64,000 bases of DNA, taken from positions 11,388 to 75,387 of the forward strand of contig JBDRWD010000003.1 in the NCBI GenBank assembly GCA_039802205.1. The letters are read 5' to 3'. The notes under the pieces are model-generated. The model saw only the letters and a program-made list of their open reading frames with translations. It had not been told where the DNA came from and ran no database searches. This DNA comes from a candidate division WOR-3 bacterium (GTDB lineage: Bacteria > Hydrothermota > Tepidihabitantia > SM23-42 > JAOAFX01). The first letter of the stretch is position 1. Each line of letters starts with the position of its first letter. Shown in pieces: positions 1-47,821 of the stretch. The translations under genes and the position numbers were made by a program.

Positions 1-802
1 GGCGGTAGAATTCGAGAATATTCTTTGATTTGAATGAAAATTTTCTTGCCGAGACCCTTTTTAATCCGGGCAGGCTCTTTATCGCATCACCGAAGAGTGA
101 ATTAATCATCTCAACTTCCGCATTTATTGGGTATTTAAACTTAAAGGGCTTCAGTTTATTTATCTTTCTTACTACCCGTCCCGCCTTTAATTCTATTTCT
201 TTTTGAACATCATCCGGATGCCGACATTTTGCACAGAATCTGGAAATACTGGATTTGGTAATGACTGTTTCAACTCCAGTCCCAAAAAATCTTTTAATCT
301 CCTGAATAAGTTTATCATCACCTGAAACCAATCCTAAAGGAACACCATAATGCCCCGCAATCCCGGCATTTATCTCGGATTCTCCAACATACTGCCCATT
401 TATTTTGATGTTATAAATCAGACTTGAAGAATAAGAATGGTCCATCATTCCGTCTTCTGTTCCAACCATTGCATGATAACCGATGAAAAATACTACATCA
501 AAGTTTTCATTAAGTCCTTCCATCATATAGTAGTTTCGGTGAGTCCCCTTTATCAGTTCCACGCCAGGCTCAAGTTCTTCTATCAATAGATTCTCACCCG
601 ATGCATGAGAATCGCAGATGAGGATTTCGCCGATTTCCATTCCGCTCTTTTTTACACCACGAATTGCTGCATTCACTTCTTGGGTTGCGAGCCTGCGGAT
701 GCGTAATAAATCCGGCGAATCCTTTCTCATCTCCTTCCAGGATGTTACACCACTTATTCCTTCTAAATCAAAAGAAATGAAAATATTAAATCTCTTTGCC
801 AT
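1..802 (-). CDS. M55-family D-aminopeptidase (DppA-like), C-terminus cut by window edge
   Basis: Hand translation of the reverse strand from the ATG (complement of 800-802) gives MAKRFNIFISFDLEGISGVTSWKEM...FFIGYHAMVGTEDGMMDHSYSS...GESEINAGIAGHYGVPLGLVSGDD. The frame stays open to position 1. It is absent from the ORF track because it has no stop inside the window. The pattern is typical of peptidase M55. Confidence 0.75.
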   Translation of the reverse strand, partial: MAKRFNIFISFDLEGISGVTSWKEMRKDSPDLLRIRRLATQEVNAAIRGVKKSGMEIGEILICDSHASGENLLIEELEPGVELIKGTHRNYYMMEGLNENFDVVFFIGYHAMVGTEDGMMDHSYSSSLIYNIKINGQYVGESEINAGIAGHYGVPLGLVSGDDKLIQEIKRFFGTGVETVITKSSISRFCAKCRHPDDVQKEIELKAGRVVRKINKLKPFKFKYPINAEVEMINSLFGDAIKSLPGLKRVSARKFSFKSKNILEFYR

Positions 803-915
803 GGGAAATTATACTGTTTTTATGATGAGTGTCAATACAGATATTTATCTTTCCGGTGGATAGATATACAATCCAGAATCCCAGGAAAGGTCGTAATGTT
901 AAACATTCAAAATGT

Positions 916-1160
916 CTGAGTTTTTCTAAATTCGCCAAATTATTATACACGCAAACGTATTAGTGGTAGCCGCACCCTTGAGGGAGCAAAATATCTGGGG
1001 ATTTAGAGATATCTATCTTTACAGGTTATGAGAAAGCCTTGTCCTATGAAAGAAAAAATCGCCGAGACGCTGCCCGTAAGGTTATCATTACAAATTTTGC
1101 CAATAGGTTTCATGGTTTCTAAATAAAACATTCTATAAAAAGTAGTGTGGAGTCAGTCAG
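916..1160. repeat. Degenerate copy of the dispersed hairpin-repeat element (copy A)
   Basis: Shares collinear blocks with 58919-59207: GGTAgCCGCACCCTTgAGGGaGC, GGATTTAgAgAT.TATC, AAAGCCTTGtCCTAtgAAAG and TTACAAATtTTGCC..GGTTTCATgGTT. Its hairpin stems carry mismatches, so it looks like a decayed copy. Confidence 0.6.
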
Positions 1161-1168
1161 AATGTGTA

Positions 1169-1196
1169 TTGACTTAATGAAATTTTGGGATAGAAT
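1169..1196 (+). promoter_or_regulatory. sigma70-type promoter of hutI (leaderless layout)
   Basis: TTGACT (1169-1174), 16-nt spacer, TAGAAT (1191-1196), then 8 nt to the ATG at 1205. No Shine-Dalgarno sequence lies between. Confidence 0.6.
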
Positions 1197-1204
1197 AAGA
1201 TTTA

Positions 1205-2404
1205 ATGGCTATTTTATTAAGTCGGGCAAAACAAGTTCTTACGATGAATGATGGTATTGGTTTAATATCCGACTGTTCGGTACTTATTGAAAATGATATC
1301 ATCAAAAAAGTCGGGCGGTTCAGCGAGTCTAATTTTAAAGGAGAAATAATCGATTGCACTGGTTATGTTTTGACTCCGGGGCTTATTGATGCTCATACCC
1401 ATCTGGTCTTTGCTGGTACCCGGGAAGATGAATTTGCCTTGCGGCTTGAAGGAGTGAAATACGAAACAATTGCCCAAAAAGGTGGGGGTATCTTGAAAAC
1501 CGTAGCGATGACGCGCGCGGCTTCTGAAGACGACCTTTATAAACTTGCGGTAGAGCGAGTCAAAAAAATCATCCGTCATGGCACTACTACGATCGAGATA
1601 AAAAGTGGCTATGGACTGTCTCTGTCGGAAGAATTGAAGATATTGCGGGTAATAAGAAGATTGAAGGAGAACATGCCAATTGATATCGTTCCCACTTACT
1701 TGATCCATGCCATTCCTAAACTTATGAAGCGTCAGGATTATGTTGATATGCAGTGCGCCGAGATGTTACCGGAAGTGGCCCGACGGCAACTCGCTGAATT
1801 CTGTGATATTTTCTGTGATAAGACCGCTTTTACCAAGAGCGAAAGTGAGAAAATACTTAAACGTGCGCGGGAACTTGGTTTTGCCCTTAAGATGCATACC
1901 GATGAATTAGCCAATATTGGTGGCGCGACGCTTGCTGCAAAACTTGGTTGTGTTTCCGCCGAACACCTTATTTATACAACTAAGTCAGGAATAAGGGATT
2001 TAAGAAGGGCTAATGTGATACCAGTGTTGTTACCGGGCACATCCCTTTATCTTCAGAGCAAACAAAAACCACGAATGCACGATTTCATAAAATTGGAACT
2101 GCCCATCGCCTTTGCTACCGACTTTAATCCGGGAACATGTATGATTTATTCCATGCCCAAGATAATTGCCCTCGCCTGTTTAGTCTATCGAGCTCCAATC
2201 GAAGTTGCCCTGATGGGTGCGACGATTAATGGGGCTAGGGCTTTGAAAAGGGATGATAAAATCGGAAAAATAAAACCCAATTTTCAAGCCGACCTGGTGG
2301 TATGGAATGTCAATGACTACCGTAAAATTCCTTATCAATTTGGTGAAGATTTGATTAAAATGGTGATAAAAAGGGGGAAGATAATCCATGAAACAAATAG
2401 TTGA
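1205..2404 (+). CDS. hutI: Imidazolonepropionase
   Basis: 399 aa. Amidohydrolase motifs LTPGLIDAHTHLVFAGTREDEF and GGGILKTV, and an HTDE metal site. The length is typical of HutI. Confidence 0.85.
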   Translation: MAILLSRAKQVLTMNDGIGLISDCSVLIENDIIKKVGRFSESNFKGEIIDCTGYVLTPGLIDAHTHLVFAGTREDEFALRLEGVKYETIAQKGGGILKTVAMTRAASEDDLYKLAVERVKKIIRHGTTTIEIKSGYGLSLSEELKILRVIRRLKENMPIDIVPTYLIHAIPKLMKRQDYVDMQCAEMLPEVARRQLAEFCDIFCDKTAFTKSESEKILKRARELGFALKMHTDELANIGGATLAAKLGCVSAEHLIYTTKSGIRDLRRANVIPVLLPGTSLYLQSKQKPRMHDFIKLELPIAFATDFNPGTCMIYSMPKIIALACLVYRAPIEVALMGATINGARALKRDDKIGKIKPNFQADLVVWNVNDYRKIPYQFGEDLIKMVIKRGKIIHETNS

Positions 2405-3902
2405 GTGCGTTCCTAATTTTAGTGAAGGAAGGGATAAAGCAAAAATTGACGAAATCGTCAAGGTCATTGAAGCAACAGGGGTGCAGATTCTTGATGTGGA
2501 AATGAATCCCGACCACAACCGTGCAGTATTGACATTCATTGGCGAACCGGACCAGGTACTGGAAGCGGCTTTTAATGCTACAAAGAAGGCAGCGGAATTG
2601 ATCGATTTGACGAAACATAAAGGTGAACATCCCCGGATTGGGGCGACTGATGTCATTCCCTTTGTTCCAATAAGCAACATCTCCACCGAAGAGTGTGTTG
2701 AACTTGCTCGCCGCCTTGGCAAAAGGATTGCGGAAGAACTTGATATACCCGTCTATCTTTATGAAGCCGCGGCCACAAGGCCAGATAGGGAAAACCTCGC
2801 CAACATACGAAAAGGAGAATTTGAAGGCTTGAGCAGAGAAATAGAGACCAATCCTGACCGTTATCCTGATTTTGGTAAACCTAAAATTCACCCCACGGCG
2901 GGGGCAACAGTTGTAGGGGCACGATTTCCCTTGATCGCCTACAACATAAATTTGAATACCAGTGATGTGAATATTGCTAAAAATATTGCTAAGGCGATAA
3001 GATTCAGGGATGGAGGATTCCGGTATGCCAAGGCCTTAGGGTTTGAATTGAAAGAAGAAGGGATTGCCCAGGTTTCGATAAATATGACTAATTATCTTGG
3101 TACACCTCTCTACCGCGTGTTTGAGATGGTTAAACTTGAAGCCCAACGCTACGGGGTGACGATTAAAGAATCCGAAATCGTCGGGTTAGTCCCGGAAAAG
3201 GCTTTGATAGATACTGCTGTTTTCTATCTTCAACTGAATCGGTTCAATGAGAATCAAATTCTTGAATACCATCTCCGGGGCATGGTGAAAAAAGAAGAGA
3301 GCTTGAACGATTTTTTAAATCAACTTTCGGATGCTACCCCTGCTCCGGGGGGCGGGAGTGTTGCGGCACTCCAGGGAGCACTGGGTGCGGCTCTCCTGTC
3401 GATGGTCACGGGTCTTACGGTGAAGAAAAACAATGATCAAGAACTGAAGGATTTTCATGGTTTGCTGCGCATGGCTGTTCGTGAGTTTTATAAGGCTATT
3501 GATGAGGACAAAAATGCATTTGAGTCAGTGATGCAGGCATACCGTCTCCCTAAGGAGACCGAAGAGGAAAAGAACCAGCGTACCCAGGCAATTCAGGAAG
3601 CCTTGAAAAGGGCTACCGATGTTCCTCTTGGTGTTTCGCAACGGATAGTCAGTCTTTATCCTTACGCCCGGATTTTATTGAAAAAAGGCCTAAAAACGGC
3701 AATCTCTGATGTTGGAGTGGCAATTTATACCCTTCATAGCGGTTTTTTAAGCGCCCGGGCTAATGTATTGATTAATCTTCCCTCGATAAACGACTCAGAG
3801 TTTGTGGCAAAAACAAAAAATCAGATTGAAAAGCTGAGAGAAGAAGAGATAAACATCTATCAGGAATTAGAAAGGGAGTTCGCTTCCACACAATTATTTT
3901 AG
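2388..3902 (+). CDS. Bifunctional glutamate formimidoyltransferase / formimidoyl-THF cyclodeaminase (fused FTCD-like)
   Basis: 504 aa. The N-terminus MKQIVECVPNFSEGRD is the formiminotransferase signature. The C-terminal part (ATPAPGGGSVAALQGALGAALLSMV) is a cyclodeaminase domain. It overlaps the hutI stop by 17 nt. Confidence 0.8.
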   Translation: MKQIVECVPNFSEGRDKAKIDEIVKVIEATGVQILDVEMNPDHNRAVLTFIGEPDQVLEAAFNATKKAAELIDLTKHKGEHPRIGATDVIPFVPISNISTEECVELARRLGKRIAEELDIPVYLYEAAATRPDRENLANIRKGEFEGLSREIETNPDRYPDFGKPKIHPTAGATVVGARFPLIAYNINLNTSDVNIAKNIAKAIRFRDGGFRYAKALGFELKEEGIAQVSINMTNYLGTPLYRVFEMVKLEAQRYGVTIKESEIVGLVPEKALIDTAVFYLQLNRFNENQILEYHLRGMVKKEESLNDFLNQLSDATPAPGGGSVAALQGALGAALLSMVTGLTVKKNNDQELKDFHGLLRMAVREFYKAIDEDKNAFESVMQAYRLPKETEEEKNQRTQAIQEALKRATDVPLGVSQRIVSLYPYARILLKKGLKTAISDVGVAIYTLHSGFLSARANVLINLPSINDSEFVAKTKNQIEKLREEEINIYQELEREFASTQLF

Positions 3903-3904
3903 TA

Positions 3905-3932
3905 TTGACAAATTTATAAAATCAATTATAAT
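3905..3932 (+). promoter_or_regulatory. sigma70-type promoter of the TPR/ExeA-like operon
   Basis: TTGACA (3905-3910), 16 nt, TATAAT (3927-3932). An 18-nt leader containing AAGGTAGG precedes the ATG at 3951. Confidence 0.6.
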
Positions 3933-3950
3933 TTGCAAGGTAGGTTGATA

Positions 3951-5852
3951 ATGGATACAGAAACTATTGCAAGAAGTCGGCAATATATCAACGAAGGGAA
4001 GTATGAAAAGGCGCAGATTATTCTGAGACGAGCCCTGGAAGAAACACCTAACCGCGCTCCGGTTCTTGAACTATGCGGTGATCTTGCGGTAAAACTCGGA
4101 AGAGTGAGCGAAGGTATCACTCGTTACGAACATGCGGTAGAGAATTATACCCATGAAGGGCGATATCCTGAGGCGATAATCTGTCTGGAAAAAATATTGA
4201 TGCTTGATGAGATGAATGAAAACGCTTTATTCAAACTGGTAGATCTTTATCATTTCTATGGGCTTCCAAATGAAGCGATTAAAAAGCTCATCAATTTTGC
4301 CTCTCGTGCTTTGGAAAAGAAGAATGAGACATTATTCATTTCGGCACTCCGTAAAATCGTGGAACTGCAGCCGAAGAATCTGCCCCTTAGGTTATCGTTT
4401 GCCAAGTTGCTTTTTTCCGTGAATAGAATTCGGGAGGCTGAAGACGAATTGATTAAATTGAAGGGGATGGCGACGGAGATAAACGACGAAAACATGCTCA
4501 ATGAAATCAGAAAATTATTACCCCAGACTGATGGAGGGGAGGAGTTGGATCCGAAAAGCCGCATTGAACTGGGAAATTTGCTTTATGAAATAGGTTCCCG
4601 GGATGAAGCGATTATCGAATTTAAAAGAGCCGCCGATGATTTAACACGGGAAGGGAAATATGAGGAAGCCATAAAAGTATTAAATCGCATATTGGAGATC
4701 GATCCCAATAATTCTGAGGCATTGCAAAAATTAAAAGAATTGAAACCAGCCGCTGGGGTAAAGGAAGAAAAGGTTGAAATTGCGAGGGAGGAAGAGAAAA
4801 AAGAAGAGGCAATAACCCTTGAGATAACCCCTGAAGAATTAAAGACCGAAATTCCTGCAACTCCGAAGGTTGAAGAATCAGTAACCGAAATCCAGAGCGA
4901 CCTTGAGATATTAGCCGACTTGAGTAAAGAAATTGAGGGATTTACTCCGATCACCGAGGAAATGCAACCCTCTAAAGAAGTGATTTCAGAACCGATCACA
5001 GAGGCTAAGGCACCGGAAGAACCAGCCGCAGAAACAAAATCCGTAGAGGTACCTCCCTTGGAAGGGCAGATAGCCGACATTGATTTTTTACTTAAAGAAT
5101 CAGAAGTTGTCCCCCCGACTCCACGCAATTTTGAAGTTGCCAAGCAGTTTGACGAATTCCGAACCAGCATTACTTGGGAGATTGATGATACTAACAAAAA
5201 GATGAATTTAGCAAGGATGGCATTAGATTCAGGCTTATACGAGATTGCCCTTTCCTATTTGGAAGAGGAGAAGGAGCGTAAGGAATTCTGGCCTGGTTCG
5301 GTGGAAATATTGGGGCAGGCACTAATAAAATTGGGACGCTACAGCGAAGCGATAAAATTAATCGGACCCATAATCCTGCTTGAGGAAATACCCGAGGATA
5401 AGAAGCTGGAATTGCGGTATTTACTAGCATCGGGATATGAAGGACTGGGCGATTTTGAGAATGCACTTCGGGAAATTGAACGGATTATTGCAATCAACCC
5501 TGATTATCGGGACGTCAAAGAGATATATACCCTGCTCGGTGGTAAGATGGAAATTCCTGTACCAGAGGCGATTGCACCAAAGACAATTTCTGAAGAATTC
5601 GGTCCTGAACCTGTTTCAGGAATTGAAGAGACCTATCCGCCGGAAAAGGTGAAGGAACCGGAACCGGTGGTTGAAGAATACTCTTCCACGGAGCCAATGA
5701 TGGGAACATTTCCGGAAAGGATTGAAGAGAGGCCTAAGGAAATTATTGTAGAAGAACCATTTATGGAAGAAAAAATCGCCTTCAAAGAAGAATATCCCGA
5801 AGAGAGAAGGATGGAGGTGGATGAAAAAGGCGAAAATATTGCTTTTCTATAA
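3951..5852 (+). CDS. TPR-repeat protein with a central Glu/Pro/Lys-rich linker (paralog 1)
   Basis: The track ORF 3933-5852 starts at a TTG that lies inside or at the promoter. The ATG at 3951 has an SD-like AAGGTAGG upstream. TPR-like helical repeats sit at both ends, separated by an acidic low-complexity linker of about 170 aa. The protein ends ...KGENIAFL. Confidence 0.7.
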   Translation: MDTETIARSRQYINEGKYEKAQIILRRALEETPNRAPVLELCGDLAVKLGRVSEGITRYEHAVENYTHEGRYPEAIICLEKILMLDEMNENALFKLVDLYHFYGLPNEAIKKLINFASRALEKKNETLFISALRKIVELQPKNLPLRLSFAKLLFSVNRIREAEDELIKLKGMATEINDENMLNEIRKLLPQTDGGEELDPKSRIELGNLLYEIGSRDEAIIEFKRAADDLTREGKYEEAIKVLNRILEIDPNNSEALQKLKELKPAAGVKEEKVEIAREEEKKEEAITLEITPEELKTEIPATPKVEESVTEIQSDLEILADLSKEIEGFTPITEEMQPSKEVISEPITEAKAPEEPAAETKSVEVPPLEGQIADIDFLLKESEVVPPTPRNFEVAKQFDEFRTSITWEIDDTNKKMNLARMALDSGLYEIALSYLEEEKERKEFWPGSVEILGQALIKLGRYSEAIKLIGPIILLEEIPEDKKLELRYLLASGYEGLGDFENALREIERIIAINPDYRDVKEIYTLLGGKMEIPVPEAIAPKTISEEFGPEPVSGIEETYPPEKVKEPEPVVEEYSSTEPMMGTFPERIEERPKEIIVEEPFMEEKIAFKEEYPEERRMEVDEKGENIAFL

Positions 5853-5865
5853 ACCAGGAGGCTAA

Positions 5866-6687
5866 GTGGGTTATCAAGAATTTTATCAACTAAAGTTTGA
5901 GCCGTTTGCAAATCTTCCCGACCCGAAATTTTATTTTAATTCACCACAACATGCACTCGCTAAGGAGTATCTGATGCATGCGGCACGGGGCACGAGAGGA
6001 TTGGCGATATTGTTGGGTGACATTGGCACGGGTAAGACAATGTTGGTGCGTAAATTATTAACCGAACTTCAAACCACTGGAAAATTTCAGGTGGGAATGA
6101 TCGTTTTGACTCACTCCGATTTTCCCACCAATTGGCTTTTTTCAAAGATTGCCAATCTTATCGGATTGAGTGATTTAGGAACAACAACTACCGAAATAAT
6201 CTCGCGCATATCAAACCGCTTACGAGAGATATACCGACGGAATGAAAGAACTGTTATAATCATTGATGAGGCAAATAAGTTAAAAAGTCCGGATATTCTT
6301 GAAGAAATCCGGGGTTTATTGAATTTAGAAATTGCCGACACCAGACTGATCTCATTTATTCTAAGTGGTTTACCAGAACTGGAATCATTTTTGATGATGA
6401 ACCGGGCACTTTATCAACGGATCGCCGTGAAGGTAAAATTAAAACCCATGGGCAGCGAGACGATTCGGGCCTACATTGCCCATCGCCTGAAAATTGCCGG
6501 TGCCCAACGTCCGATTTTCACCCCAATGGCGCAGGAGATCATCTGTAGATATTCTGAAGGTAGACCGCGCCTCGTCAATATTATCTGTGATAATGCCCTG
6601 CTGGAGGGATATGTCCAGCGAAAGCAGACGATTGACGAGGCCGTTGTTGAACGAGTGATAAGCAATTTAGGTTTGAGATTTGAATAA
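5866..6687 (+). CDS. ExeA/GspA-like AAA+ ATPase (AAA_22 type), paralog 1
   Basis: 273 aa, GTG start after AGGAGG. N-terminal FY.L...PF....DPKFYFNSPQHALA, Walker A GDIGTGKT, Walker B IIIDEAN and the C-terminal motif ICDNALLEG are as expected for the ExeA family. Confidence 0.75.
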   Translation: MGYQEFYQLKFEPFANLPDPKFYFNSPQHALAKEYLMHAARGTRGLAILLGDIGTGKTMLVRKLLTELQTTGKFQVGMIVLTHSDFPTNWLFSKIANLIGLSDLGTTTTEIISRISNRLREIYRRNERTVIIIDEANKLKSPDILEEIRGLLNLEIADTRLISFILSGLPELESFLMMNRALYQRIAVKVKLKPMGSETIRAYIAHRLKIAGAQRPIFTPMAQEIICRYSEGRPRLVNIICDNALLEGYVQRKQTIDEAVVERVISNLGLRFE

Positions 6688-8558
6688 TGGGTGATGTTGG
6701 TGCTATTAAAAGATATGTTGCCGAATTACAGGCAAAAGGCGAAATAAATAAAGCCATTGCCGAACTGGAAAAGGCAATAAAAGAATTTCCTAAAGAGGGT
6801 TCTTTATTCAATATCTTAGGTGATTTGTATATCAAAGTCAACCGCCAGAAAGAAGCCTTAGATATCTACGAACAGGGTGCTTTTGCTCTTGCGGAGGAGA
6901 CCTTCTATTCAAATGCCGTATCAATGTGTAAAAAGATCCTCCGGTTGGATAAGGAAAGGACAGAGATTTATAAACTCCTCGGTGATTGCCATAAAGAACT
7001 CGGACTTTATGTGGAAGCCGCAAATTATTATCTGGAATATGCGGATCGGAAGTTGAAGAATAACGAAATTGACGCGGCACTTAAGACTTATGAGGCGATA
7101 AAAGAACTTGTTCCCAACAATTATAAGATCATACAGACCATCTCCGCCATTTATGAGAAGATCGGCCGGAAAGAACAGAGTGCCGATTTATTGAAAGAAG
7201 CCGAGCAGATTCAGCTAAAACAAAGAGAGTTGAAGGAACCGACGACGCCTTCGGCTGCTCCGGTGACGGTTGAAGAACCAAAAGTGGAAATACCCGAACC
7301 TTTAGCTGTGGAAACCGTTAGGCCGGTGAAGACCGAACCTATGGAGCCTGTAAGTACTCCAAAAGTTGAAGAAGAAAAAGAAACTGTTGAATCAATAAAG
7401 GTACCTGAAATATCTCCGACGGAACCGGAGAAAGCAGAAGTTGAAGAAGTCAAACCGGCAGAAAAGGAAGAGATTTCTCTCGAGGATTTTGTCTCGCCTG
7501 AGGTGGCACAATTGTTGAAAGATGAAGTTGAGACGAAACCACCACCGGTAGAAGTTGTGGAAGAAGTTCCTGCAGAGCCGGAAGAGCTTTCTGAGATTGA
7601 AAAGACAAAACAACTTGCGGAAATATATCTCAATTTAGGTGAGGATGAAGAAGCAATAAATTGTTTCCGGGACGCGGCTGCCATGGCATTTAAAGAGAAG
7701 AAATATGATCAGGCTATGGATTTATACAAAAGGGTTGCTGACCTGAGACCTCTGGATTTGAAGTCGCGACAGCGGTTGATCGAAATTGCCAAGTTGCAGG
7801 GTGATAAAGCACTCCAAGTGAATTTTATGATTGAACTTGCAGAGACTCTTTATAGGCGCGAGGCTCGAACCGAGGCGCAATCCGTTCTGCGCAAAATATT
7901 AGAGATAGACCCTCAACATGCACTCGCACAAAGTATGCTTGAAGAAGAAACAAGCGCAAAAGAATATATTGACTTGGGGCAGGTGTTAAAGAGTGAAATT
8001 GAGGGGGAAGGGGCTTCTTCTACACTCCAGAATATTCATGATTTGATTTCGCAGTTCCGCAAAGAGGTATTTGAGTCGATCGGAGAAGGTGATTATCGTT
8101 CTCATTATGACTTGGGTGTGGCCTACAAGGGCATGGGACTATATCAGGAGGCAATAGAAGAATTTGAGATTGCTGCTCGGGATGAGAATTTGAAATTGAA
8201 GTCTTATGAGATGATCGCAGCATGTCTCATTGAAAAAGGGAATGTGGAGGAGGCGATAAAGGTATTGAATGAAGGACTCGCGATCCCCAATCGGCCGGTT
8301 CGGGAGTATTTTGGTCTTCATTTCCTTTTAGGAAATGCCTATGAGATGCAAAACAATTTAAAGATGGCAATCAAATCTTATGTAAACGCGGCAAATATTG
8401 ATAAAACAGTGCCCGATTTGTTGAAAAAGATAAATGAATTAAAGGACAAGCTTACCGAGGAATTAAAAAAGCGGGCACAAGCAACTCCGCCGCCAACTTC
8501 GGCACCCCCGAGCGAGGAAACTATTAAACCAAAGAAATCAAAGGTTACTTATCTCTAA
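6687..8558 (+). CDS. TPR-repeat protein with a central Glu/Pro/Lys-rich linker (paralog 2)
   Basis: 623 aa. Its ATG overlaps the previous stop (TAATG). The architecture matches 3951-5852. The protein ends ...KKSKVTYL. Confidence 0.7.
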   Translation: MGDVGAIKRYVAELQAKGEINKAIAELEKAIKEFPKEGSLFNILGDLYIKVNRQKEALDIYEQGAFALAEETFYSNAVSMCKKILRLDKERTEIYKLLGDCHKELGLYVEAANYYLEYADRKLKNNEIDAALKTYEAIKELVPNNYKIIQTISAIYEKIGRKEQSADLLKEAEQIQLKQRELKEPTTPSAAPVTVEEPKVEIPEPLAVETVRPVKTEPMEPVSTPKVEEEKETVESIKVPEISPTEPEKAEVEEVKPAEKEEISLEDFVSPEVAQLLKDEVETKPPPVEVVEEVPAEPEELSEIEKTKQLAEIYLNLGEDEEAINCFRDAAAMAFKEKKYDQAMDLYKRVADLRPLDLKSRQRLIEIAKLQGDKALQVNFMIELAETLYRREARTEAQSVLRKILEIDPQHALAQSMLEEETSAKEYIDLGQVLKSEIEGEGASSTLQNIHDLISQFRKEVFESIGEGDYRSHYDLGVAYKGMGLYQEAIEEFEIAARDENLKLKSYEMIAACLIEKGNVEEAIKVLNEGLAIPNRPVREYFGLHFLLGNAYEMQNNLKMAIKSYVNAANIDKTVPDLLKKINELKDKLTEELKKRAQATPPPTSAPPSEETIKPKKSKVTYL

Positions 8559-8571
8559 AAAGGAGTAGAGA

Positions 8572-9384
8572 TTGGGATACGAAAGTTTTTATAAATTAAA
8601 AGAACACCCCTTCAGTTTTACCACTGATGAAAAATTCTATTATAATTCACCACAGCATGCCAAGGCATTGGCAAAACTTACCCATGCGGTGGAGACGGAG
8701 AAAGGATTGGCTTTGTTGATCGGCGACATCGGAACCGGGAAGACGACGCTTTCCCGCCGATTGCTGGACCAGTTGATCAGCAATAATGTGGAAGCCACGC
8801 TGCTGGTTATTATCCACTCTGAAATAACTTCACTATGGTTTCTTAAAAAAATCGCTCTGATGCTTGAAACACCGGTGGAATCCGACAATAAGATTGAAAT
8901 CATTACCGCCGTCTATCATCGGTTGCTTGATCTGGCGAGCAAGAATAAAAAAGTTGTCATTCTAATTGACGAAGCAAATATGCTCCAGCGCAAGGATTTG
9001 ATGGAAGAAATACGGGGTTTATTAAATCTTGAATCCGAACATGGCAAACTTTTGAATTTTATTCTTTTTGGTCTACCGGAGATGGAAGATTATCTGAAGC
9101 TCGATCCACCCCTTTACCAGCGTGTTGCCGTTCGTTGCGTTCTGGAGGCATTGGATCAGGAGACGACCCATAATTATATTGTCCACCGGCTTCGGGTGGC
9201 GGGTTGTGCACGTCCGCTTTTCACGGGTGGGGCAATGAAGGCGATTTATCAATATTCAAAAGGTGTCCCCCGGACGATAAATGCGATCTGTGACAATGCT
9301 TTGCTTGAAGGTTTCCTTTTGAAAAAAGAAATCGTTGATGAAAAAATCATTCTGGATGTTTGTCGCGATCTCGGGCTAACTTAG
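8572..9384 (+). CDS. ExeA/GspA-like AAA+ ATPase, paralog 2
   Basis: 270 aa, TTG start after AAGGAG. It has MGYESFYKLKEHPF...KFYYNSPQHAKAL, GDIGTGKT, ILIDEAN and ICDNALLEG. By eye it is roughly 45 percent identical to 5866-6687. Confidence 0.75.
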   Translation: MGYESFYKLKEHPFSFTTDEKFYYNSPQHAKALAKLTHAVETEKGLALLIGDIGTGKTTLSRRLLDQLISNNVEATLLVIIHSEITSLWFLKKIALMLETPVESDNKIEIITAVYHRLLDLASKNKKVVILIDEANMLQRKDLMEEIRGLLNLESEHGKLLNFILFGLPEMEDYLKLDPPLYQRVAVRCVLEALDQETTHNYIVHRLRVAGCARPLFTGGAMKAIYQYSKGVPRTINAICDNALLEGFLLKKEIVDEKIILDVCRDLGLT

Positions 9385-10220
9385 GAACCAATCATTTGAC
9401 ACCCTTTTCTGCCGATCTTCATATCCACACTACCTGTTCTGATGGTGTATATACTCCAGAGGAAGTTGTTGATATTGCACTCAAATCACAAATTTCGACA
9501 ATTGCCATTGCGGACCACGACTCGATTGCCGGTATTGATCGGGCAATCAAATACGCTCAAAACCGCCTGGAGATTATTCCTGCTGTGGAATTAAGCTCCA
9601 ATATTGGAAAATTGGATATCCACCTTCTTGGCTATTACATTGATTACCATTCATCAGCTCTGATTGATTATCTGGAAGATTTTCGAATCTACCGGGTGGA
9701 ACGGGCAAAAAAAATTGTTGAAAAATTAAATCGCTCTGGCATAAGGCTTGATTTTGAATTTGTTAAATTGATTGCAAAAGATAGTGTGATAGGTAGGCCC
9801 CATATTGCGGAAGCACTGGTTAAGACGGGCTATGCCCGTTCAGTAAGCGAGGCATTCGCGCGATATCTTGGCTACCACTGTAGTTTCTATGAACCTAAAA
9901 AAGAGATAAGCCCTAAAAAGGCGATTGAAAAAATAAAAAATTGCGGAGGTATCCCTGTGATTGCACATCCCGGGATGATAGGTAAAGATAATGGTGTGGT
10001 TTATAAATTGATTGATGATGGGGCATGGGGTATTGAAGTGTGGCATCCTGAGCATACCAGGAAACAGGAGGATGATTTCTATGAAATTGCAGTAAAACAT
10101 GGATTATTGATGACCGGTGGTTCCGATTTCCATGGTTATCCACGGGGCTATTGTAGGATTGGTGAATATGGTTGCAATGAGATACATGTCGCTTGTTTGA
10201 AGGAAAAAAACAAAAGATAA
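9360..10220 (+). CDS. PHP-domain phosphoesterase (TrpH/YciV-like)
   Basis: DLHIHTTCSDGVYTPEE...IAIADHDSIAGI...HPG...GGSDFHG metal-binding pattern. The start is uncertain. The TTG at 9360 overlaps the upstream gene, and an in-frame TTG at 9396 (giving MTPFSADLHIHT) is equally plausible. Confidence 0.7.
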   Translation: MSRSRANLGTNHLTPFSADLHIHTTCSDGVYTPEEVVDIALKSQISTIAIADHDSIAGIDRAIKYAQNRLEIIPAVELSSNIGKLDIHLLGYYIDYHSSALIDYLEDFRIYRVERAKKIVEKLNRSGIRLDFEFVKLIAKDSVIGRPHIAEALVKTGYARSVSEAFARYLGYHCSFYEPKKEISPKKAIEKIKNCGGIPVIAHPGMIGKDNGVVYKLIDDGAWGIEVWHPEHTRKQEDDFYEIAVKHGLLMTGGSDFHGYPRGYCRIGEYGCNEIHVACLKEKNKR

Positions 10221-10235
10221 GAAGGAGTAGAATAT

Positions 10236-10649
10236 ATGGATATTGAGGCAATAAAAAAAATTCTCCCGCATCGGGAACCATTTTTATTTATTGATGAGGT
10301 ATTAGAGATAAGTGATAAAAAAATTATTGCCAAACGCACCATTAAGCACGACGAGTATTTCTTCGCAGGTCACTTTCCTGGTGAGCCGATAATGCCGGGC
10401 GTTCTCATTGTGGAAGCACTTGCCCAGACCGGTGGTGTGATGCTTTTACGAAAAATGCCCGGGGCAATTCCTTTGTTTATGGGAATTGATAAAGCAAGAT
10501 TCCGAAAGATTGTCAAACCTGGTGATACATTGATAATGGAGGTGGAGTTACTCCAGGAACGAGGAATGGTGGTGAAGATTGAAGGTGTTGCAAAAGTTAA
10601 TGGTGAAGTCGTCTGTGAAGCAACAATTCTTGCTGGCATCAAAAAATGA
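10236..10649 (+). CDS. fabZ: 3-hydroxyacyl-ACP dehydratase
   Basis: 137 aa. LPHREPFLFIDEV...FFAGHFPGEPIMPGVLIVEALAQ hot-dog signature. An AAGGAG Shine-Dalgarno sequence lies upstream. Confidence 0.9.
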   Translation: MDIEAIKKILPHREPFLFIDEVLEISDKKIIAKRTIKHDEYFFAGHFPGEPIMPGVLIVEALAQTGGVMLLRKMPGAIPLFMGIDKARFRKIVKPGDTLIMEVELLQERGMVVKIEGVAKVNGEVVCEATILAGIKK

Positions 10650-10667
10650 TTGAAGAAACAATGAGAG

Positions 10668-11429
10668 ATGGATGAAGTTTTTATTGACAGGAGAGCAAAG
10701 GTTCACCGCTCGGTTAAAATCGGGCGATTTTCAATTGTTGAGGAGGGGGTGGAAATTGGGGCGGGAACAGAAATTGGTGAATTTGTAATCATCAGAAGAG
10801 GGACAAGGCTGGGTAAAAATAATAAAATATATGCAGGTGTCCAATTGGGAATCGACCCGCAGGATTATCACTTTAAAGGTGAGTATTCCGAATGTATCAT
10901 CGGGGACAATAATATCATCCGGGAATATACCACGGTTTCCCGGGCGACCGGTGAGGGTGAGAAAACTGTCATAGGTAATAATAACTTTATCATGACATAT
11001 GTGCACATCGCCCACAATGTAAAAATCGGGAATAACACAGTGATTGCCAGCGGGGTCCAGATTGCCGGATATGTGGAAATTGATGATTATGCCTATATAG
11101 GAGGCCTGGCGGGTATCCATCAATTTTGTCGCATAGGCAAATATGCCCTTTTAGGTGCAAAGTCATATTTGAATAAAGATCTACCACCCTACTTTATGGC
11201 ACGGGGAAATAAGGCAATGGTTTTGGGGATTAACCGTATCGGATTGCTAAGAGCGGGTTTTACCATGGATGATCTTGAAGAAATAAAAAAGATCTTCCGT
11301 ACACTTTATTGTACTAATAAAAATCTAAGCGAAATCGTCTTACACTTAGAAAACGATGGAAAAAAAGAATTCGCTCAGACCGTTGTTAACTTCATTAAAA
11401 CTACCAAGCGCGGAATTGTGCGCCGGTAA
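10668..11429 (+). CDS. lpxA: Acyl-ACP--UDP-GlcNAc O-acyltransferase
   Basis: 253 aa. Hexapeptide repeats are followed by the helical tail GINRIGLLRAGFTMDDLEEIKKIFRTLY. It follows fabZ, which is the conserved gene order. Confidence 0.85.
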   Translation: MDEVFIDRRAKVHRSVKIGRFSIVEEGVEIGAGTEIGEFVIIRRGTRLGKNNKIYAGVQLGIDPQDYHFKGEYSECIIGDNNIIREYTTVSRATGEGEKTVIGNNNFIMTYVHIAHNVKIGNNTVIASGVQIAGYVEIDDYAYIGGLAGIHQFCRIGKYALLGAKSYLNKDLPPYFMARGNKAMVLGINRIGLLRAGFTMDDLEEIKKIFRTLYCTNKNLSEIVLHLENDGKKEFAQTVVNFIKTTKRGIVRR

Positions 11430-11576: not shown

Positions 11577-11790
11577 GGTTTTTTTTGGTTAAATTATTTA
11601 CAACGCTCCTGACAAATTTTGAAATAAATCTGGAACATTGATAAATGGCAAGTTATGAATATAATTCACTATAAATTAAGAAGAGAAATGGTAAGGGATA
11701 TTGTTTGTCACAAATCTCTCTCAAAGGATATTCGGTTCTTTCTTTTTAGGATACTGCATAATTGGATTACTACAAAGGAGGCAGGATGAA

Positions 11791-11822
11791 ATGCCTAAAT
11801 ACCTACATGCCTAAATGCCTAA
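11791..11822. repeat. 4 x 8-bp tandem repeat (ATGCCTAA-like)
   Basis: The units are atgcctaa/atacctac/atgcctaa/atgcctaa, followed by gtttgga gtttgga. The array lies at the 5' end of the pseudogene. Confidence 0.7.
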
Positions 11823-12843
11823 AATTTTTTGTTTGGAGTTTGGAAATTAAACATTGTATGAGTTACGGTGTTGGGGATGCTGGATATGAGACTGATACTT
11901 GTCTATCCGTGGTTCAAGATAATACCTTTTATGCCAATGATTCATTTCCTTTGATTATCAGCACAACCGAACTTGGTGAATGTAAAAACAATCAATTTAT
12001 TGATAATCGTCATAATGCAATTTTAATCAGAGGTGGCGGTGATATAACAAAAAGTTTGAGCATCCAGAATCAGGGTGTGCCTTATGTAATAGATTGCTGG
12101 TTTGTAGTAAATAGTCTATTGGAGATTGAAAAGAGGAATATTTTGCAATTTAAAGGTCAGAGAGCGTGGTTTAAGCCCAATGGTATTTTAAAAGCAACTG
12201 GAGTAACCTTTACTGCGTATGATACTGTTTGGTGGGGAATGAAGTTTGATAATTCTAAATTAGATGCTTCAGTATTGGATAGTTGTATCTTAGAAAAAGC
12301 GAGATATTATAGTGGTGTTTGGCCAAGGGGTGCGATTGATATTAACAATAGCTGGATGCGGGTGAGCAATTCGGCCGTCGTGAATAATGAGTGTGGGATT
12401 TACATAAGTGGCGCAGCGAGCAGATTGACTTTGACTAATAATTTAATCAGTCAGAACAGTGATGGGATAAGAGCGTATGGTGATAGCAAGGCGGAATCTC
12501 TTTATATTAAATTTAACGATCTTTCAGGAAACAAATGTGCATTTGCTATGCCTATCAATTTCTCACCCCCATATTATGTGGCTGATTCTAACTGGTGGGG
12601 GGATGCAACAGGACCCTGGGACCCATCAAATGGTGCGCCGGATTATAATCCGCAGGGAAGACAATTCAATTGGGGATTATGTTATTTATAGATCATGGTT
12701 GACTGCACCGGTTCAGCCGCCAAAGGTTATGCTTTTACAGCCGAATGGGGAAGAGGTTTTGGATAGTGGGGAAAGGTATGAGATTAGATGGAGATGGGGA
12801 GACGAGAAGATCAGAATATCAGAGTGTCAGGGGATGAGAGAAA

Positions 12844-12871
12844 AATCCGAAATCCGAAAACCGAAATCCGA
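12844..12871. repeat. 4 x 7-bp tandem repeat (AATCCGA)
   Basis: The units are aatccga/aatccga/aaaccga/aatccga. They sit inside the first insertion in the pseudogene. Confidence 0.75.
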
Positions 12872-13736
12872 AACAAATTCTAAATCAGAAATTCCAAACA
12901 TTCAAAAAGACACAGATGGGATTCCTCGCAATGGCACTCTCACCCTTACCCTGGTGCAGTGATTGAGACACTATTTACCCAGACCTTCTGTAGGACTCCT
13001 TCAATTACGATTGATGATTCAAGGAATCTGCATATTCTGTGGCAGGGTAAGAAGAGTATTTGCTATCAAGAGAAAGATTCAACGGACTGGCTTGGAGTTG
13101 ACACTATCTACCAGACAGGCTCTATCCAGTGATCGATCTTTATGGCACAAAGATAATGACAGTCTGGCAGGACCGGGATTTATTGGGCAATTTAGAGATT
13201 TATAGCCGGCAGAAGACTGATACTGGCTGGCAGGATATAAAAAAGGTTACGACAACTTCTGGAGAATCAAAATTTCCAACCCTATCCGGTGGGCATTATT
13301 GTTTGTGGCAGGATAATATGTCTGGAAACTGGGAAGTATATATGAGTAAGTATGTGGATACTTTGGGAAGTTGGACCTCACCAGAGAATATCTCTAATAC
13401 AACGACCGCCTCAGTTTTTCCACATTCTGCATATTCTTTAGTGAATGCTAATAATGCAAAGTTATATTGCCTCTGGACCGAGGGTGATACGATTCTCTAT
13501 ACGATTAAATTTAAAAAAATTGATGTTTCCCCGGTGGCAAAGGTCTTTGCGGATTTGGGCCAGCCTATTCAATCCCGGTACTGCTTGCACTGTGATGGCT
13601 ACTGGATATTTGGTGATAAGCCTTATCAGACTACGGATTGGGGGTATGAGAATTTGAGATATAAGTTTATGGGATTGAACCCGGAGAAAATATATCGGCT
13701 GGATTTGGTGTATTATTTTGAGAATCAGACAATCGG

Positions 13737-13826
13737 AGGCAATTCAGGGCAATTTGAGGCAATTAGAGGCAAAAGGGGAATCAGGGGTTATTAAGGGATA
13801 TGAAAGGTCATCAGGGGATAACGGGC
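13737..13826. repeat. 10-bp periodic purine-rich repeat
   Basis: The first four units are gaggcaattc/agggcaattt/gaggcaatta/gaggcaaaag. Five degenerate GG-phased decamers follow. Confidence 0.6.
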
Positions 13827-13849
13827 TTGAAGTTTCTGCTTCTACAGGT

Positions 13850-13877
13850 CGTGAACCGTGTACCGTGAACCGTGAAA
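13850..13877. repeat. 4 x 7-bp tandem repeat (CGTGAAC)
   Basis: The units are cgtgaac/cgtgtac/cgtgaac/cgtgaaa. Confidence 0.75.
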
Positions 13878-13892
13878 CGGAAAATTGTAGTG

Positions 13893-13936
13893 GTGCGATT
13901 CATCGCACGGATGGGATGCTGAAACAAGTTCAGCAT
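13893..13936. repeat. Two short hairpins inside the second insertion
   Basis: gtgcga-ttca-tcgcac (13893-13908) and atgctgaa-acaag-ttcagcat (13916-13936). Confidence 0.6.
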
Positions 13937-14579
13937 GACAGACACAAAAATGATGTTTCTATTCCAGAAGGAGAGAGGGGCATTGGCAGGATTATTCAGG
14001 GCTGGTGGTGGATGGAATTGGACTGGATACGACATTTATTACCCCGAATCATTTAGAGCGGATTTCCATTTGGTTGCCTGAGAATACCTATGCCGATGGA
14101 GAAATAATTATGGATATTTCAAAAGTCAAAGGCAAGCGGGTTGTTTGTAGTGAGATTGGGTTATATGAGTTTCCTTCAGAGAAATTCTATACCAGTAATT
14201 TTTCTGATCCACAGGGTGCTGAATTACAACTTTCAAAGCAATTCTATCTTGATAAAATCTATCCTAATCTGACAAAGGGAATGATAAGACTAAGATTCAA
14301 TTCACCGGATAACCGAAAAATCATAATTAAACTCTATGATGTCAGCGTCGACTCGTGCACACAGAAGATATATTAGAATCAGTAATCGGAATGAATGGGG
14401 TTATGATAAGACCAAAAGGATTTCCAGCGGGAATTTATTTTGTCAAACTTGAGACCTCGGGGTATGAAAAGATAGAAAAGGCAATCCTTCTCAAATAAAA
14501 GAGTTTTTTCACATTTTGGTTAATTGATGCAGTTTAACCCCTGAGGAATAAGATTATTTTCTTTGATTTAATCGCATTC

Positions 14580-29198: not shown

Positions 29199-29762
29199 AT
29201 GGGTAGAGAGAAAAAACAGGAGATCCTCAAGGCAATCCGGGATTTTATAAGGGAATATGGTTATCCTCCTACAATTCGGGAGATTGCCCGGATGGTAGGA
29301 TTGAAGAGCACAAAAGGGGTAAAGGTTCATATCGACAATCTAGTAAAAGAAGGGTTGCTGAAAAAGACCCAGAGCAAGGCAAGGGGATTGATGGTAGAAC
29401 CGGTTAGACTGCCAATAGTGGGAAGGGTGGCTGCTGGGTTGCCTAATCTCGCTTTTGAAGAGATTGAAGGATATTTTGACCCTTTTTCCTGGCAGGACTG
29501 CTTTTTGTTAAGGGTGAAGGGAGATAGTATGATCAATGCCCGGATATATGATGGAGACCTGGTGGTGGTCCGTCCGGGCGGAGACGCCCAGGAAGGGGAT
29601 ATAGTTGTTGCCAATGTGGAAGGAGAGACGACTATAAAAAGATTGAGGGTAATAAACGGTAGATTTGTTCTGAAACCCGAGAATGATTCATATCCCCTGA
29701 TAGAGAAACCGTTTGAAATAATGGGCAAGGTAGTTGGAGTGGTAAGGGAACTCAACCCCTGA
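29199..29762 (+). CDS. lexA: LexA repressor
   Basis: 187 aa. Winged-helix N-terminus (YPPTIREIARMVGLKSTKGV), VAAG cleavage site and S24 peptidase motifs VKGDSM...K. Confidence 0.9.
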   Translation: MGREKKQEILKAIRDFIREYGYPPTIREIARMVGLKSTKGVKVHIDNLVKEGLLKKTQSKARGLMVEPVRLPIVGRVAAGLPNLAFEEIEGYFDPFSWQDCFLLRVKGDSMINARIYDGDLVVVRPGGDAQEGDIVVANVEGETTIKRLRVINGRFVLKPENDSYPLIEKPFEIMGKVVGVVRELNP

Positions 29763-29764
29763 TC

Positions 29765-30946: not shown

Positions 30947-30949
30947 AAA

Positions 30950-44875: not shown

Positions 44876-45517
44876 ATGCTGATTTGCCAGCGCTGCCAAA
44901 ATTCCTTACTTGAAAAATCAAACTTCTGTCCCTATTGTGGTAAAATGCTCTCACCGGAAGGTAAGTTACCTCTGGAAGATATACCTTTAGTTTTTTTGCG
45001 AGCTGATTTATCTGGTTTTACGAGTTTGAGCGAGTCGCTAGAGGCGGAGGATGTGATGCAATTCTTGAATAGCCTTTTTGAAGATTTCTGTAAGATAATA
45101 GAAAAGTACCGAGGCATTCTCTATCAAATAATTGGTGACGAAATCGTCGGTATCTTTGGGTTGACCCACGAAACGGAATATACCCCACATCTTGCGGTTA
45201 TGGCGGTTGAAGAGATAGTAAAGAGGGTAAAAGATTGTGAGCAGATATCCTCTGCATTCAAAGAATGTAAGATAAAATGCGGTATAGAGTTGGCTCAGGC
45301 ATCAATATATAATATTGCGGGTAATCTTCAATCTGCCATAATCGTTACTGACGGTTTTGCCAAGAGTTTAATTTTGCAACGGAATGCAGGTAATAATAGC
45401 GTTTTGGTTGGGGAAACATTTTACCAGGCGACGCGTTCGGTTTTTGAATACGAAGAATATGGGGAATTGGTCGAAAGTCATTTATCAATTCGGGCCTATA
45501 AATTAAAATTGAGGTAG
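44876..45517 (+). CDS. Zinc-ribbon / class III nucleotidyl cyclase domain protein (C1-like)
   Basis: 213 aa. Its ATG directly abuts the upstream TAG. It has C4xxC7...C18xxC21, LVFLRADLSGFTSLSE and YQIIGDEIVGIFG. Confidence 0.75.
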   Translation: MLICQRCQNSLLEKSNFCPYCGKMLSPEGKLPLEDIPLVFLRADLSGFTSLSESLEAEDVMQFLNSLFEDFCKIIEKYRGILYQIIGDEIVGIFGLTHETEYTPHLAVMAVEEIVKRVKDCEQISSAFKECKIKCGIELAQASIYNIAGNLQSAIIVTDGFAKSLILQRNAGNNSVLVGETFYQATRSVFEYEEYGELVESHLSIRAYKLKLR

Positions 45518-45519
45518 TT

Positions 45520-47697: not shown

Positions 47698-47700
47698 CCA

Positions 47701-47773: not shown

Positions 47774-47781
47774 GACTCTTG

Positions 47782-47809: not shown

Positions 47810-47821
47810 TTAAAAATTTTA

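Follow-up and report, generated by a model that had tools for sequence, protein, structure and literature searches.

A 64,000-nucleotide stretch of DNA (the window) from a candidate division WOR-3 bacterium, on contig JBDRWD010000003.1 of assembly GCA_039802205.1, contains two consecutive units that each consist of a gene for a tetratricopeptide repeat (TPR) protein and a gene for a short ExeA-family AAA+ ATPase. It is probable, in our judgement, that these four genes, named TPR1, ATP1, TPR2 and ATP2, represent one conserved cytoplasmic switch module in two paralogous copies of ancient origin, each of which pairs a scaffold of the SgmX family with an ExeA-family ATPase. The duplication of the module is real and non-random, and the open reading frame (ORF) map agreed with the gene list of a preliminary description of the window, which had been made from the sequence alone. 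Proteins identical to those of the window occur on contigs of WOR-3 metagenome-assembled genomes (MAGs) such as GCA_039802305.1, and close homologues carry WOR-3 or TA06 labels.

Organization and expression of the duplicated module

The four core genes are on the forward strand. TPR1 (positions 3951 to 5852) encodes a divergent SgmX-family TPR scaffold of 633 residues, and ATP1 (5866 to 6687, GTG start) a soluble AAA_22-type ATPase of 273 residues; TPR2 (6687 to 8558) encodes an SgmX-family scaffold of 623 residues, and ATP2 (8572 to 9384, TTG start) an ExeA-family ATPase of 270 residues. The TPR repeats of both scaffolds and the AAA_22 domains of both ATPases were found with Pfam and NCBIfam. 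Earlier estimates of about 630 residues for the TPR proteins and about 270 for the ATPases agree with these lengths, whereas the linkers, previously put at about 170 residues, are shorter, at about 145 residues in TPR1 (residues ~255 to 400) and about 115 to 135 in TPR2 (residues ~165 to 300), and are acidic and proline-rich in both proteins.

In TPR1, an N-terminal TPR domain is followed by the linker, a C-terminal TPR domain, a second Glu/Pro-rich stretch (residues ~530 to 625) and a short tail. The AlphaFold2 (AF2) model of TPR2 has confidently predicted helical repeat domains at residues 1 to 183 and 303 to 598, a disordered linker with a predicted local distance difference test score (pLDDT) below 50 at residues 186 to 298, and a disordered tail (residues 603 to 623) that is not docked on its own protein. 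Amid the variable linker of TPR2 there is a conserved motif, LEDFVSPEVAQLLKDE (LEDFVSPEVAxLLKDE; 7479 to 7526, forward strand), in which P271 is invariant and S270, E272, A274, L276 and L277 are at least 90% conserved in 64 orthologues, and the AF2 model places a four-residue helix at residues 271 to 274 within it. This motif is a candidate binding site for some partner. In the sister MAG GCA_039802165.1 (locus L002, 7859 to 9987), TPR1 is split within the low-complexity linker into two ORFs of 486 and 190 residues, which is due either to a frameshift or to an assembly error.

A sigma-70-type promoter with 12 of 12 consensus matches (TTGACA, 16 nt, TATAAT) is located at 3905 to 3932 on the forward strand, directly upstream of TPR1. 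The longest ORF of TPR1 runs from a TTG codon at 3933 to 5852, and the preliminary description had begun both the gene and its transcript at 3933. Because the perfect promoter puts this TTG codon upstream of the likely transcript start, TPR1 most likely begins at the ATG codon at 3951, which is preceded by a ribosome-binding site (AAGGTAGG) and has been adopted by public gene calls, giving the 633-residue protein; a metatranscriptome contig also starts at 3951.

The spacings between the core genes are exactly those described before, namely 13 nt (ACCAGGAGGCTAA), −1 nt (TAATG) and 13 nt (AAAGGAGTAGAGA). The spacers bear AGGAG-type ribosome-binding sites, and the overlap of the ATP1 stop codon with the TPR2 start codon is kept in 24 of 28 loci. 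The gaps that follow, into genes for a PHP-family phosphoesterase, FabZ and LpxA, measure 11, 15 and 18 nt, within the 18 nt that had been stated. The core genes are thus shown to be tightly spaced, with predicted translational coupling and a putative promoter dedicated to the module. The expression data are fragments of the locus in one sediment metatranscriptome, a run that may contain DNA. Of the junctions in the single transcript that had been proposed, ATP1/TPR2, TPR2/ATP2 and fabZ/lpxA were crossed by RNA contigs, and TPR1/ATP1, ATP2/PHP and PHP/fabZ had no coverage in these data. Co-transcription of the four core genes is likely, and co-transcription reaching into PHP, fabZ and lpxA is plausible.

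Co-occurrence of the scaffold tail and the ATPase gene

Both scaffolds end in a short tail, GENIAFL-COOH in TPR1 (5829 to 5849) and KKSKVTYL-COOH in TPR2 (8532 to 8555), both on the forward strand. The similarity of the two C termini had been noticed before, and it was found that the tails are strongly conserved and co-occur with the ATPase. The consensus is G[ED]NI[AST]F[LI] in TPR1 orthologues, which keep the tail at loci whose ATP1 proteins are 73 to 96% identical to that of the window, and K[KR]S[KR][IV]TYL in the TPR2 orthologues of WOR-3 and TA06, of which 119 of 120 bear it. The corresponding tails are [KR]x[KR][IV][ST][YF][LIVM] in other phyla, K-I-S-Y-M or K-[IV]-G-Y-[VL] in Myxococcota, and PIQF[VI] in a WOR-3 lineage with a single pair. 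Each WOR-3 paralogue has thus retained a tail of its own, GENI[AST]F[LI] as opposed to KKSK[IV]TYL.

Conservation was surveyed by scanning species-representative genomes. ATPases with at least 42% identity to ATP1 or ATP2 were classed as related, and the tail was scored as [IVL]x[FYW][LIVMF]-COOH in the upstream ORF on the same strand. It was found that the upstream ORF bore the tail at 79 of 82 related ATPases, in locus counts that include redundant near-identical genomes, and at 0 of 76 more distant ExeA-like ATPases, the background rate of the motif being 5 in 1854 ORFs. The three exceptions among the 82 are L172, which is an ORF-calling artefact, L009, which has an ATP1-type gene without a TPR1 gene, and the outgroup locus L081. 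Among the best 149 cluster representatives retrieved with the TPR2 profile, 40 have the tail, and the other 109 stop right after the last TPR helix. Five tail-less relatives were examined (P0298, P0286, P0274, P0403 and P0422) and none has an ATPase neighbour, whereas the tail-bearing P0257, P0358 and P0364 all do; the context of P0364 had not been seen beforehand, and its AAA_22 gene was found adjacent, as expected. This co-occurrence fits the idea, already put forward in the preliminary description, that the tail may be a docking peptide for the ATPase.

A comparison of two Myxococcota loci looks like a case in which the tail and the genes downstream were lost jointly at one position: L172 has efp, accB and accC followed by a tail-bearing TPR gene, the ATPase, TamB and Omp85 genes, whereas the TPR gene that follows accB and accC in L174 has no tail and is accompanied by neither ATPase nor TamAB genes.

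A search for adjacent TPR and ATPase genes in related genomes had been suggested, and the adjacency proved to be conserved far beyond the source genome. At L009 to L026, labelled Nitrospirota, Thermodesulfovibrionia, Desulfuromonadales/Geobacteraceae, Methylomirabilota, FCPU426, Thermodesulfobacteriota and 'Deltaproteobacteria', a TPR gene (500 to 1100 residues) is followed by an ATPase gene (270 to 320 residues, about 50% identical to ATP2), and the other neighbours, which include radA and mutL-miaA (the latter downstream of the pair in Geobacter), vary. The pair is also present in the WOR-3 loci L007 and L087 to L121 and in Myxococcota. ExeA-like ATPases below about 42% identity are found in other contexts, as GspA-type proteins of 530 to 700 residues or as proteins of 310 to 320 residues in polysaccharide-like loci.

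Relationship of the scaffolds to SgmX

The sole specific curated match of TPR2 is the NCBIfam model of SgmX, NF052243, at 87.7 bits, with residues 449 to 587 of TPR2 matching model positions 874 to 1015; the score of TPR1 is 44.4 bits. Homologues from other phyla match both ends of this model, with scores of 529.9 bits for L013 (a Myxococcota MAG), 311 for L011, 212 for L024 and 200 for L012. In profile comparisons with hhalign, TPR2 aligned with Myxococcota SgmX-like proteins over 221 C-terminal columns (probability 99.9, E 4.4e-34), an alignment that takes in the tail and a non-repeat segment (ISQFRKEVFESIGEGDYRSHYDLGVAYKGMGL versus FSEFKKGVEKVV.KEDSATHFDLGIAYKEMGL), and the TPR1 family aligned with the same group over 200 N-terminal columns (probability 99.3, E 3.4e-20), residues 5 to 262 of TPR1 corresponding to SgmX-like residues 8 to 208. 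The N terminus of TPR2 in turn aligned with TPR1. These profile-profile matches indicate more than generic TPR similarity.

In Myxococcus xanthus SgmX, TPRs 1 to 8 form the pilus-activating domain, TPRs 9 to 11 bind FrzS and TPRs 12 to 14 bind MglA-GTP (PMC7668184, PMC9811614), although how the activating domain turns on type IV pili is unknown (PMC9811614). SgmX recruits PilB to the leading cell pole. By the alignments, the N-terminal TPR domain of the window scaffolds is homologous to the pilus-activating domain (repeats 1 to 8 of SgmX), and the C-terminal TPR domain to the MglA-GTP binding region (repeats 12 to 14).

The M. xanthus operon MXAN_5766-5763 consists of sgmX, MXAN_5765 (described as a putative ATPase of the Sec system), MXAN_5764 (TamB-like) and MXAN_5763 (Omp85) (PMC3983030; PMC7668184). 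The Myxococcota MAG loci L013, L090 and L172 contain pilMNOPQ (only pilOPQ in L013 and L172), efp, a TPR gene, an AAA_22 ATPase gene, and genes for TamB and a multi-POTRA Omp85, and this gene order is the published layout of the M. xanthus sgmX operon. In Bdellovibrio, SgmX homologues align to the N-terminal part of SgmX only, and their operon is without an ATPase gene (literature including PMC3983030). A homologue search with the TPR protein of L013 returned MAG proteins only and no SgmX of a cultured Myxococcus, a search of the Protein Data Bank (PDB) with the C-terminal domain of TPR2 returned only designed or generic TPR proteins, and a literature search on type IV pili of WOR-3 bacteria found nothing usable.

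Properties of the ATPases

All of the ATPase motifs quoted in the preliminary description are common to ATP1 and ATP2. The AAA_22 (PF13401) matches of the two proteins have E values of 3.6e-21 and 1.1e-20; the Walker A (GDIGTGKT) and Walker B (IIDEA) motifs are intact in ATP1, and the invariant residues of the family include G51, G54, G56, K57, T58, D133 and E134 of these motifs. No membrane segment was found in any of the four core proteins (the maximum Kyte-Doolittle value of the ATPases in a 19-residue window is at most 1.45), and no N-terminal hydrophobic stretch was found by inspection. A direct action of the four proteins in the periplasm or the outer membrane is excluded.

The AF2 model of ATP2 has a pLDDT of 94.7 and a predicted template modelling score of 0.88. 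Its best Foldseek matches are archaeal ORC/Cdc6, MuB and TnsC, with template modelling scores of 0.65 to 0.75 and sequence identities of 12 to 18%, and a PDB sequence search with the ATPase profile found only TnsC (E 7e-10), MuB and Orc. The proteins matched here function as nucleotide switches and assembly factors rather than as unfoldases. The PDB searches yielded no solved structure of an ExeA-type ATPase or of a TPR2 relative, and literature searches on ExeA-like, GspA-like and MshM proteins returned only unrelated papers.

Two other identities were considered for the ATPases and rejected. An anti-phage defence system was rejected because the PADLOC matches of the ATPases were only weak, generic AAA hits (best E about 2e-6) and the TPR proteins had no match. 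A mobile element of the TniB/TnsC type was rejected on the stable synteny in WOR-3 and the finding of no transposase in the Pfam scans of the window or in the neighbour tables inspected.

The nearest outgroup of the TPR-linked ATPases is the 289-residue ExeA-like ATPase of L081, which is located in a chemosensory cluster (173 to 11401) together with CheA, CheW, two methyl-accepting chemotaxis proteins (MCPs), a zinc-ribbon/receiver protein and a HEAT-repeat protein.

Age of the duplication

ATP1 and ATP2 are 47% identical over 270 residues. By BLAST, TPR1 and TPR2 are 26% identical over 163 residues, in a match confined to the N-terminal 160 residues, and the profiles of the two families are collinear over 451 columns (hhalign, E 1e-19). 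Between the two units, DNA similarity of about 70% is found at the ATPase motifs only, with a period of about 2.7 kb. In a neighbour-joining tree with bootstrap, all ATPases that have an upstream TPR gene form a single clade (bootstrap 88), within which the ATP1 clade (84) is restricted to WOR-3-like loci, and the WOR-3 ATP2 clade (81) joins the single-copy ATPases of other phyla (69). A deeper WOR-3 lineage (L087, L111 to L119) has a single pair only. The separate ATP1 and ATP2 clades indicate that the duplication predates the diversification of the sampled WOR-3 lineages, and it is ancient. A recent duplication was ruled out by the identity of the two ATPases, the tree and the absence of similarity at the DNA level.

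Neighbouring genes

Upstream of the module are hutI (1205 to 2404) and ftcD (2388 to 3902), whose products score above the curated HutI and FtcD cutoffs. Downstream, on the forward strand, are the gene for the PHP-family phosphoesterase, of the TrpH/YciV type (9396 to 10220, with an alternative start at 9360), fabZ (10236 to 10649) and lpxA (10668 to 11429), the last two above their NCBIfam cutoffs. The PHP protein contains a PHP domain by Pfam and NCBIfam and has sub-threshold matches to the models of RNase RNM and 3′,5′-nucleoside bisphosphate phosphatase.

The block hutI, ftcD, TPR1, ATP1, TPR2, ATP2, PHP, fabZ and lpxA is kept in the WOR-3 subclade of the window. The preliminary description had taken the linkage to lipid A genes as a hint of function, but fabZ-lpxA is not beside the module in L087, L088, L009, L111 to L119 or any other phylum examined. 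Because the adjacency is limited to one WOR-3 subclade, it is weak evidence of function, and fabZ and lpxA are probably co-transcribed neighbours rather than conserved parts of the module. A PHP gene follows the last ATPase gene in all WOR-3 loci seen that extend past the ATPase, and also in L009 and L088, and is not found with the module in the other phyla examined; its functional membership of the module is uncertain.

The genes hutH, hutI and ftcD are found directly upstream of SgmX-like TPR genes in WOR-3 (1205 to 3902 in the window; L009, L087 and L088). On unrelated contigs, L176 (5.4 Mb) has hutH, hutI, ftcD and a tail-less TPR gene with a stop/start overlap, L175 has hutI followed by a TPR gene, and L177 has ftcD, TPR, ATPase, TPR and comEC genes in this order.

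Model of the module and evaluation of alternatives

We propose that each scaffold consists of an N-terminal TPR domain, a disordered acidic linker, a C-terminal TPR domain and a free [IV]-x-[FY]-[LIVM]-COOH tail, and that the ATPase is the counterpart of MXAN_5765 of the M. xanthus sgmX operon. The ATPase would bind the scaffold at the C-terminal domain and the tail, and ATP binding and hydrolysis would switch the assembly, conformation or location of the scaffold, the N-terminal domain of which may control an envelope-spanning machine. In Myxococcus this machine would be the type IV pilus, and the TamAB genes beside the module in Myxococcota may hint at a role in outer-membrane biogenesis; by analogy with Myxococcota, a link to the envelope through type IV pili or TamAB, and not through lipid A, is plausible. 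WOR-3 bacteria may have evolved two separate scaffold/ATPase pairs, and the PHP, fabZ and lpxA genes would be downstream passengers on the module transcript, with only PHP conserved phylum-wide. The fullest version of this proposal, in which an ancient multi-phylum module that includes SgmX uses the switch to read the tail together with the adjoining TPR domain and so controls how the scaffold assembles at envelope machines, with orthogonal pairs in WOR-3, is held only tentatively, as we think it somewhat more likely to fail in some part than to hold as a whole.

Several observations weigh against the proposed scaffold and ATPase switch. The curated cutoff of NF052243 is 1800 bits, which neither TPR2 nor TPR1 reaches and which even the Myxococcota homologue of L013 falls short of, and the window proteins are distant relatives of SgmX and not equivalogs or orthologues with proven function. 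Deletion of mxan_5765 left S-motility unaffected, and insertions in MXAN_5765-5761 caused no developmental defect (literature including PMC7668184); a C-terminal SgmX-mVenus fusion is also active. These data indicate that the one known function of SgmX requires neither the ATPase nor a free tail, and that the ATPase-tail axis must therefore serve a purpose different from pilus activation or redundant with it; that M. xanthus SgmX itself bears the tail is a prediction. No type IV pilus or TamB gene was found in the 64-kb window. A search of the loci retrieved and of the window, which covers just 64 kb of the genome, gave no MglA-like ORF, a result of little weight. At L177 a single ATPase gene lies between two TPR genes that both bear the tail, and so one-to-one pairing is not universal. 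In a search for charge complementarity between the ATPase paralogues and their acidic or basic tails, five acidic positions that are conserved in ATP2-type ATPases were found to be neutral in ATP1-type ATPases, but equally many basic positions change in the opposite direction. Lastly, because of the redundancy in the genome set, the counts of tail-bearing loci are not independent.

It has to be considered whether the module is instead an uncharacterised factor of outer-membrane or lipid A assembly that is coupled to fabZ-lpxA by co-transcription, as the preliminary description had supposed. The lack of a convincing terminator between the genes from TPR1 to lpxA, which are at most 18 nt apart, the RNA contig across fabZ/lpxA, the synteny from TPR1 to lpxA that is kept in the subclade down to 73% ATP1 identity, and the proximity of the Myxococcota module to TamB and Omp85, which are outer-membrane biogenesis factors, would all be in keeping with such a role. 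We nevertheless think it unlikely, because fabZ-lpxA is absent from beside the module in the other WOR-3 lineages and phyla, all four proteins are soluble and cytoplasmic, and no RNA covers the ATP2/PHP and PHP/fabZ junctions; moreover, hutI-ftcD is equally conserved upstream, and so local synteny need not mean shared function. Reliance on the lipid A genes in the preliminary description was probably wrong, and the relationship to SgmX and MXAN_5765 was missed there.

The same conserved hutI-ftcD neighbours enter into a different alternative, namely that each TPR/ATPase pair is a split switch resembling the signal transduction ATPases with numerous domains (STAND), with a TPR sensor, an NTPase and an output through PHP or hut regulation, and with no link to pili or the envelope. 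The ATPases have weak Pfam matches to NACHT, nSTAND6, NB-ARC and AAA_16 and an ORC/Cdc6-like fold, PHP follows the last ATPase gene in the WOR-3 loci seen and in L009 and L088, hutI/ftcD precede SgmX-like TPR genes in WOR-3 and in the unrelated L175, L176 and L177, and the nearest outgroup ATPase, that of L081, is within a cluster of cheA, cheW and MCP genes. Even so, the module is found without PHP in all other phyla examined, the hut-adjacent tail-less TPR genes have no ATPase gene, matches to defence systems are not strong (E no better than about 2e-6), and the SgmX homology is specific at both end domains, so that we give this alternative little credence. Still less likely, in our view, is that the proteins are ordinary helpers of the ExeA/GspA, MshM or PEP-CTERM type, with a secretin or exopolysaccharide export system encoded elsewhere and the TPR proteins acting as partners like PilF, MshN or PrsT. 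In favour of such a role, MSHA and PEP-CTERM loci also combine a TPR protein with an ExeA-like ATPase, the best NCBIfam match of both ATPases is TIGR03015 over the full length (196.3 and 199.2 bits), and homologues are named 'general secretion pathway protein A' or 'ExeA' by the Joint Genome Institute (JGI). These scores are under the TIGR03015 cutoff of 324.5, however, and unlike the GspA-type proteins of 530 to 700 residues at L030 to L086, ATP1 and ATP2 have no membrane segment or peptidoglycan-binding extension. The TPR-linked ATPases form a separate clade (bootstrap 88), none of the 76 distant ExeA-like ATPases has a tail-bearing upstream ORF, the TPR proteins are without a signal peptide, unlike PrsT and the PilF-type lipoproteins, and no secretin or exosortase gene is present in the window.

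If the fullest version of the proposal is correct, the acidic GENIxF[LI] tail with ATP1 and the basic KKSK[IV]TYL tail with ATP2 would be natural duplicated signalling pairs that are kept apart. The C-terminal domain and tail of the scaffold travel with the ATPase across at least seven phylum-level groups and are lost along with it, and the ATPase gene beside sgmX has been set aside for want of a phenotype in the reported assays. The locus offers a defined peptide and, for a branch of the ExeA family that is uncharacterised, a candidate for the ancestral function. It also allows a family to be assigned to four genes of the uncultured WOR-3 phylum that had been anonymous; no function should be read into the neighbouring lipid A genes.

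Other features of the window

From 11762 to 14376 there are short ORFs on the same strand in shifting frames, the first of which has Beta_helix/NosD repeats, and gene calls in this region differ between sister MAGs (L001 and L002). The region probably represents a gene for a large surface protein of the beta-helix type that is disrupted or has been mis-assembled. At 29199 to 33694, lexA, a dinB-like gene of the IMS family and a PHP/DNA polymerase III alpha-like gene are in a row, an arrangement that resembles an SOS mutagenesis cassette. A signalling cluster at 41696 to 49859 encodes two cyclase-domain proteins, one of which has 1059 residues and combines adenylate/guanylate cyclase, AAA_16 and TPR domains, together with a HEAT-repeat protein and a diguanylate cyclase with three GAF domains and a GGDEF domain. 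On the reverse strand at 59353 to 61959, an 868-residue ORF has Enolase_C (residues 262 to 555) ahead of Enolase_N (684 to 786). This odd order may be due to the fusion of two enolase-like genes or to an ORF call that extends too far.

Comparison with known systems

ExeA and GspA, which act with ExeB and GspB in assembling the secretin of type II secretion, have a membrane anchor and a periplasmic peptidoglycan-binding domain. The window ATPases share with them the AAA_22 domain, an N-terminal ...PF... motif, the Walker A and B motifs and the presence of a partner protein, but they are soluble proteins of about 270 residues in a separate clade, and the partner is a cytoplasmic TPR protein and not GspB; neither a GspB-type partner nor secretin neighbours of the ATPases were found in the window. 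The ATPase model of the XrtA/PEP-CTERM system (TIGR03015) is the top curated model for both ATPases, and that system includes the TPR protein PrsT; however, the matches of the window TPR proteins to PrsT (TIGR02917) are generic (53 and 40 bits, where the cutoff is 312), these proteins are not lipoproteins, and no exosortase-type gene was found in the window. The preliminary description had likewise listed no secretin, pilin or exosortase gene, and scans of the window were in accord with this.

In the Vibrio MSHA system, the ExeA-like ATPase MshM adjoins the TPR protein MshN in a pilus context, and the gene order is that of ATP1 and TPR2, the pair with the 1-nt overlap. In contrast to that system, the module has no msh genes near it, the curated models matched did not include MshM or MshN, and no secretin or PilB-family gene, the counterparts of MshL and MshE, was found in the window. 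Among solved folds, ORC/Cdc6, MuB and TnsC come closest to the ATP2 model, and they are the only PDB sequence matches, but they assemble on DNA, and no sign of DNA binding or of a mobile element was seen in this analysis. FimV and HubP, which take part in polar type IV pilus organization, resemble the window TPR proteins in having TPR repeats and a long acidic linker; they are anchored in the membrane and have a periplasmic LysM domain, whereas the window proteins have no membrane segment. Some SgmX-like homologues are labelled FimV by JGI.

The function of SgmX is defined only for the activation of type IV pili through MglA and FrzS. SgmX has 1060 residues, compared to about 630 in the window TPR proteins, and the window differs from the M. 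xanthus sgmX operon in the duplication of the pair, the paralogue-specific tails, the added PHP gene and the absence of tamB, omp85 and a pil cluster from the neighbourhood; MglA was not seen either. The duplication, the paralogue-specific tails, the PHP gene and the lack of a TamAB or pil context are new here, and a coupling of scaffold and ATPase is not discussed in the SgmX literature covered. In both systems, the scaffold is cytoplasmic and has homologous N- and C-terminal TPR domains with a disordered linker between them, and the TPR gene is followed directly by a gene for a short ExeA-like ATPase, once in the M. xanthus operon and twice in the window.

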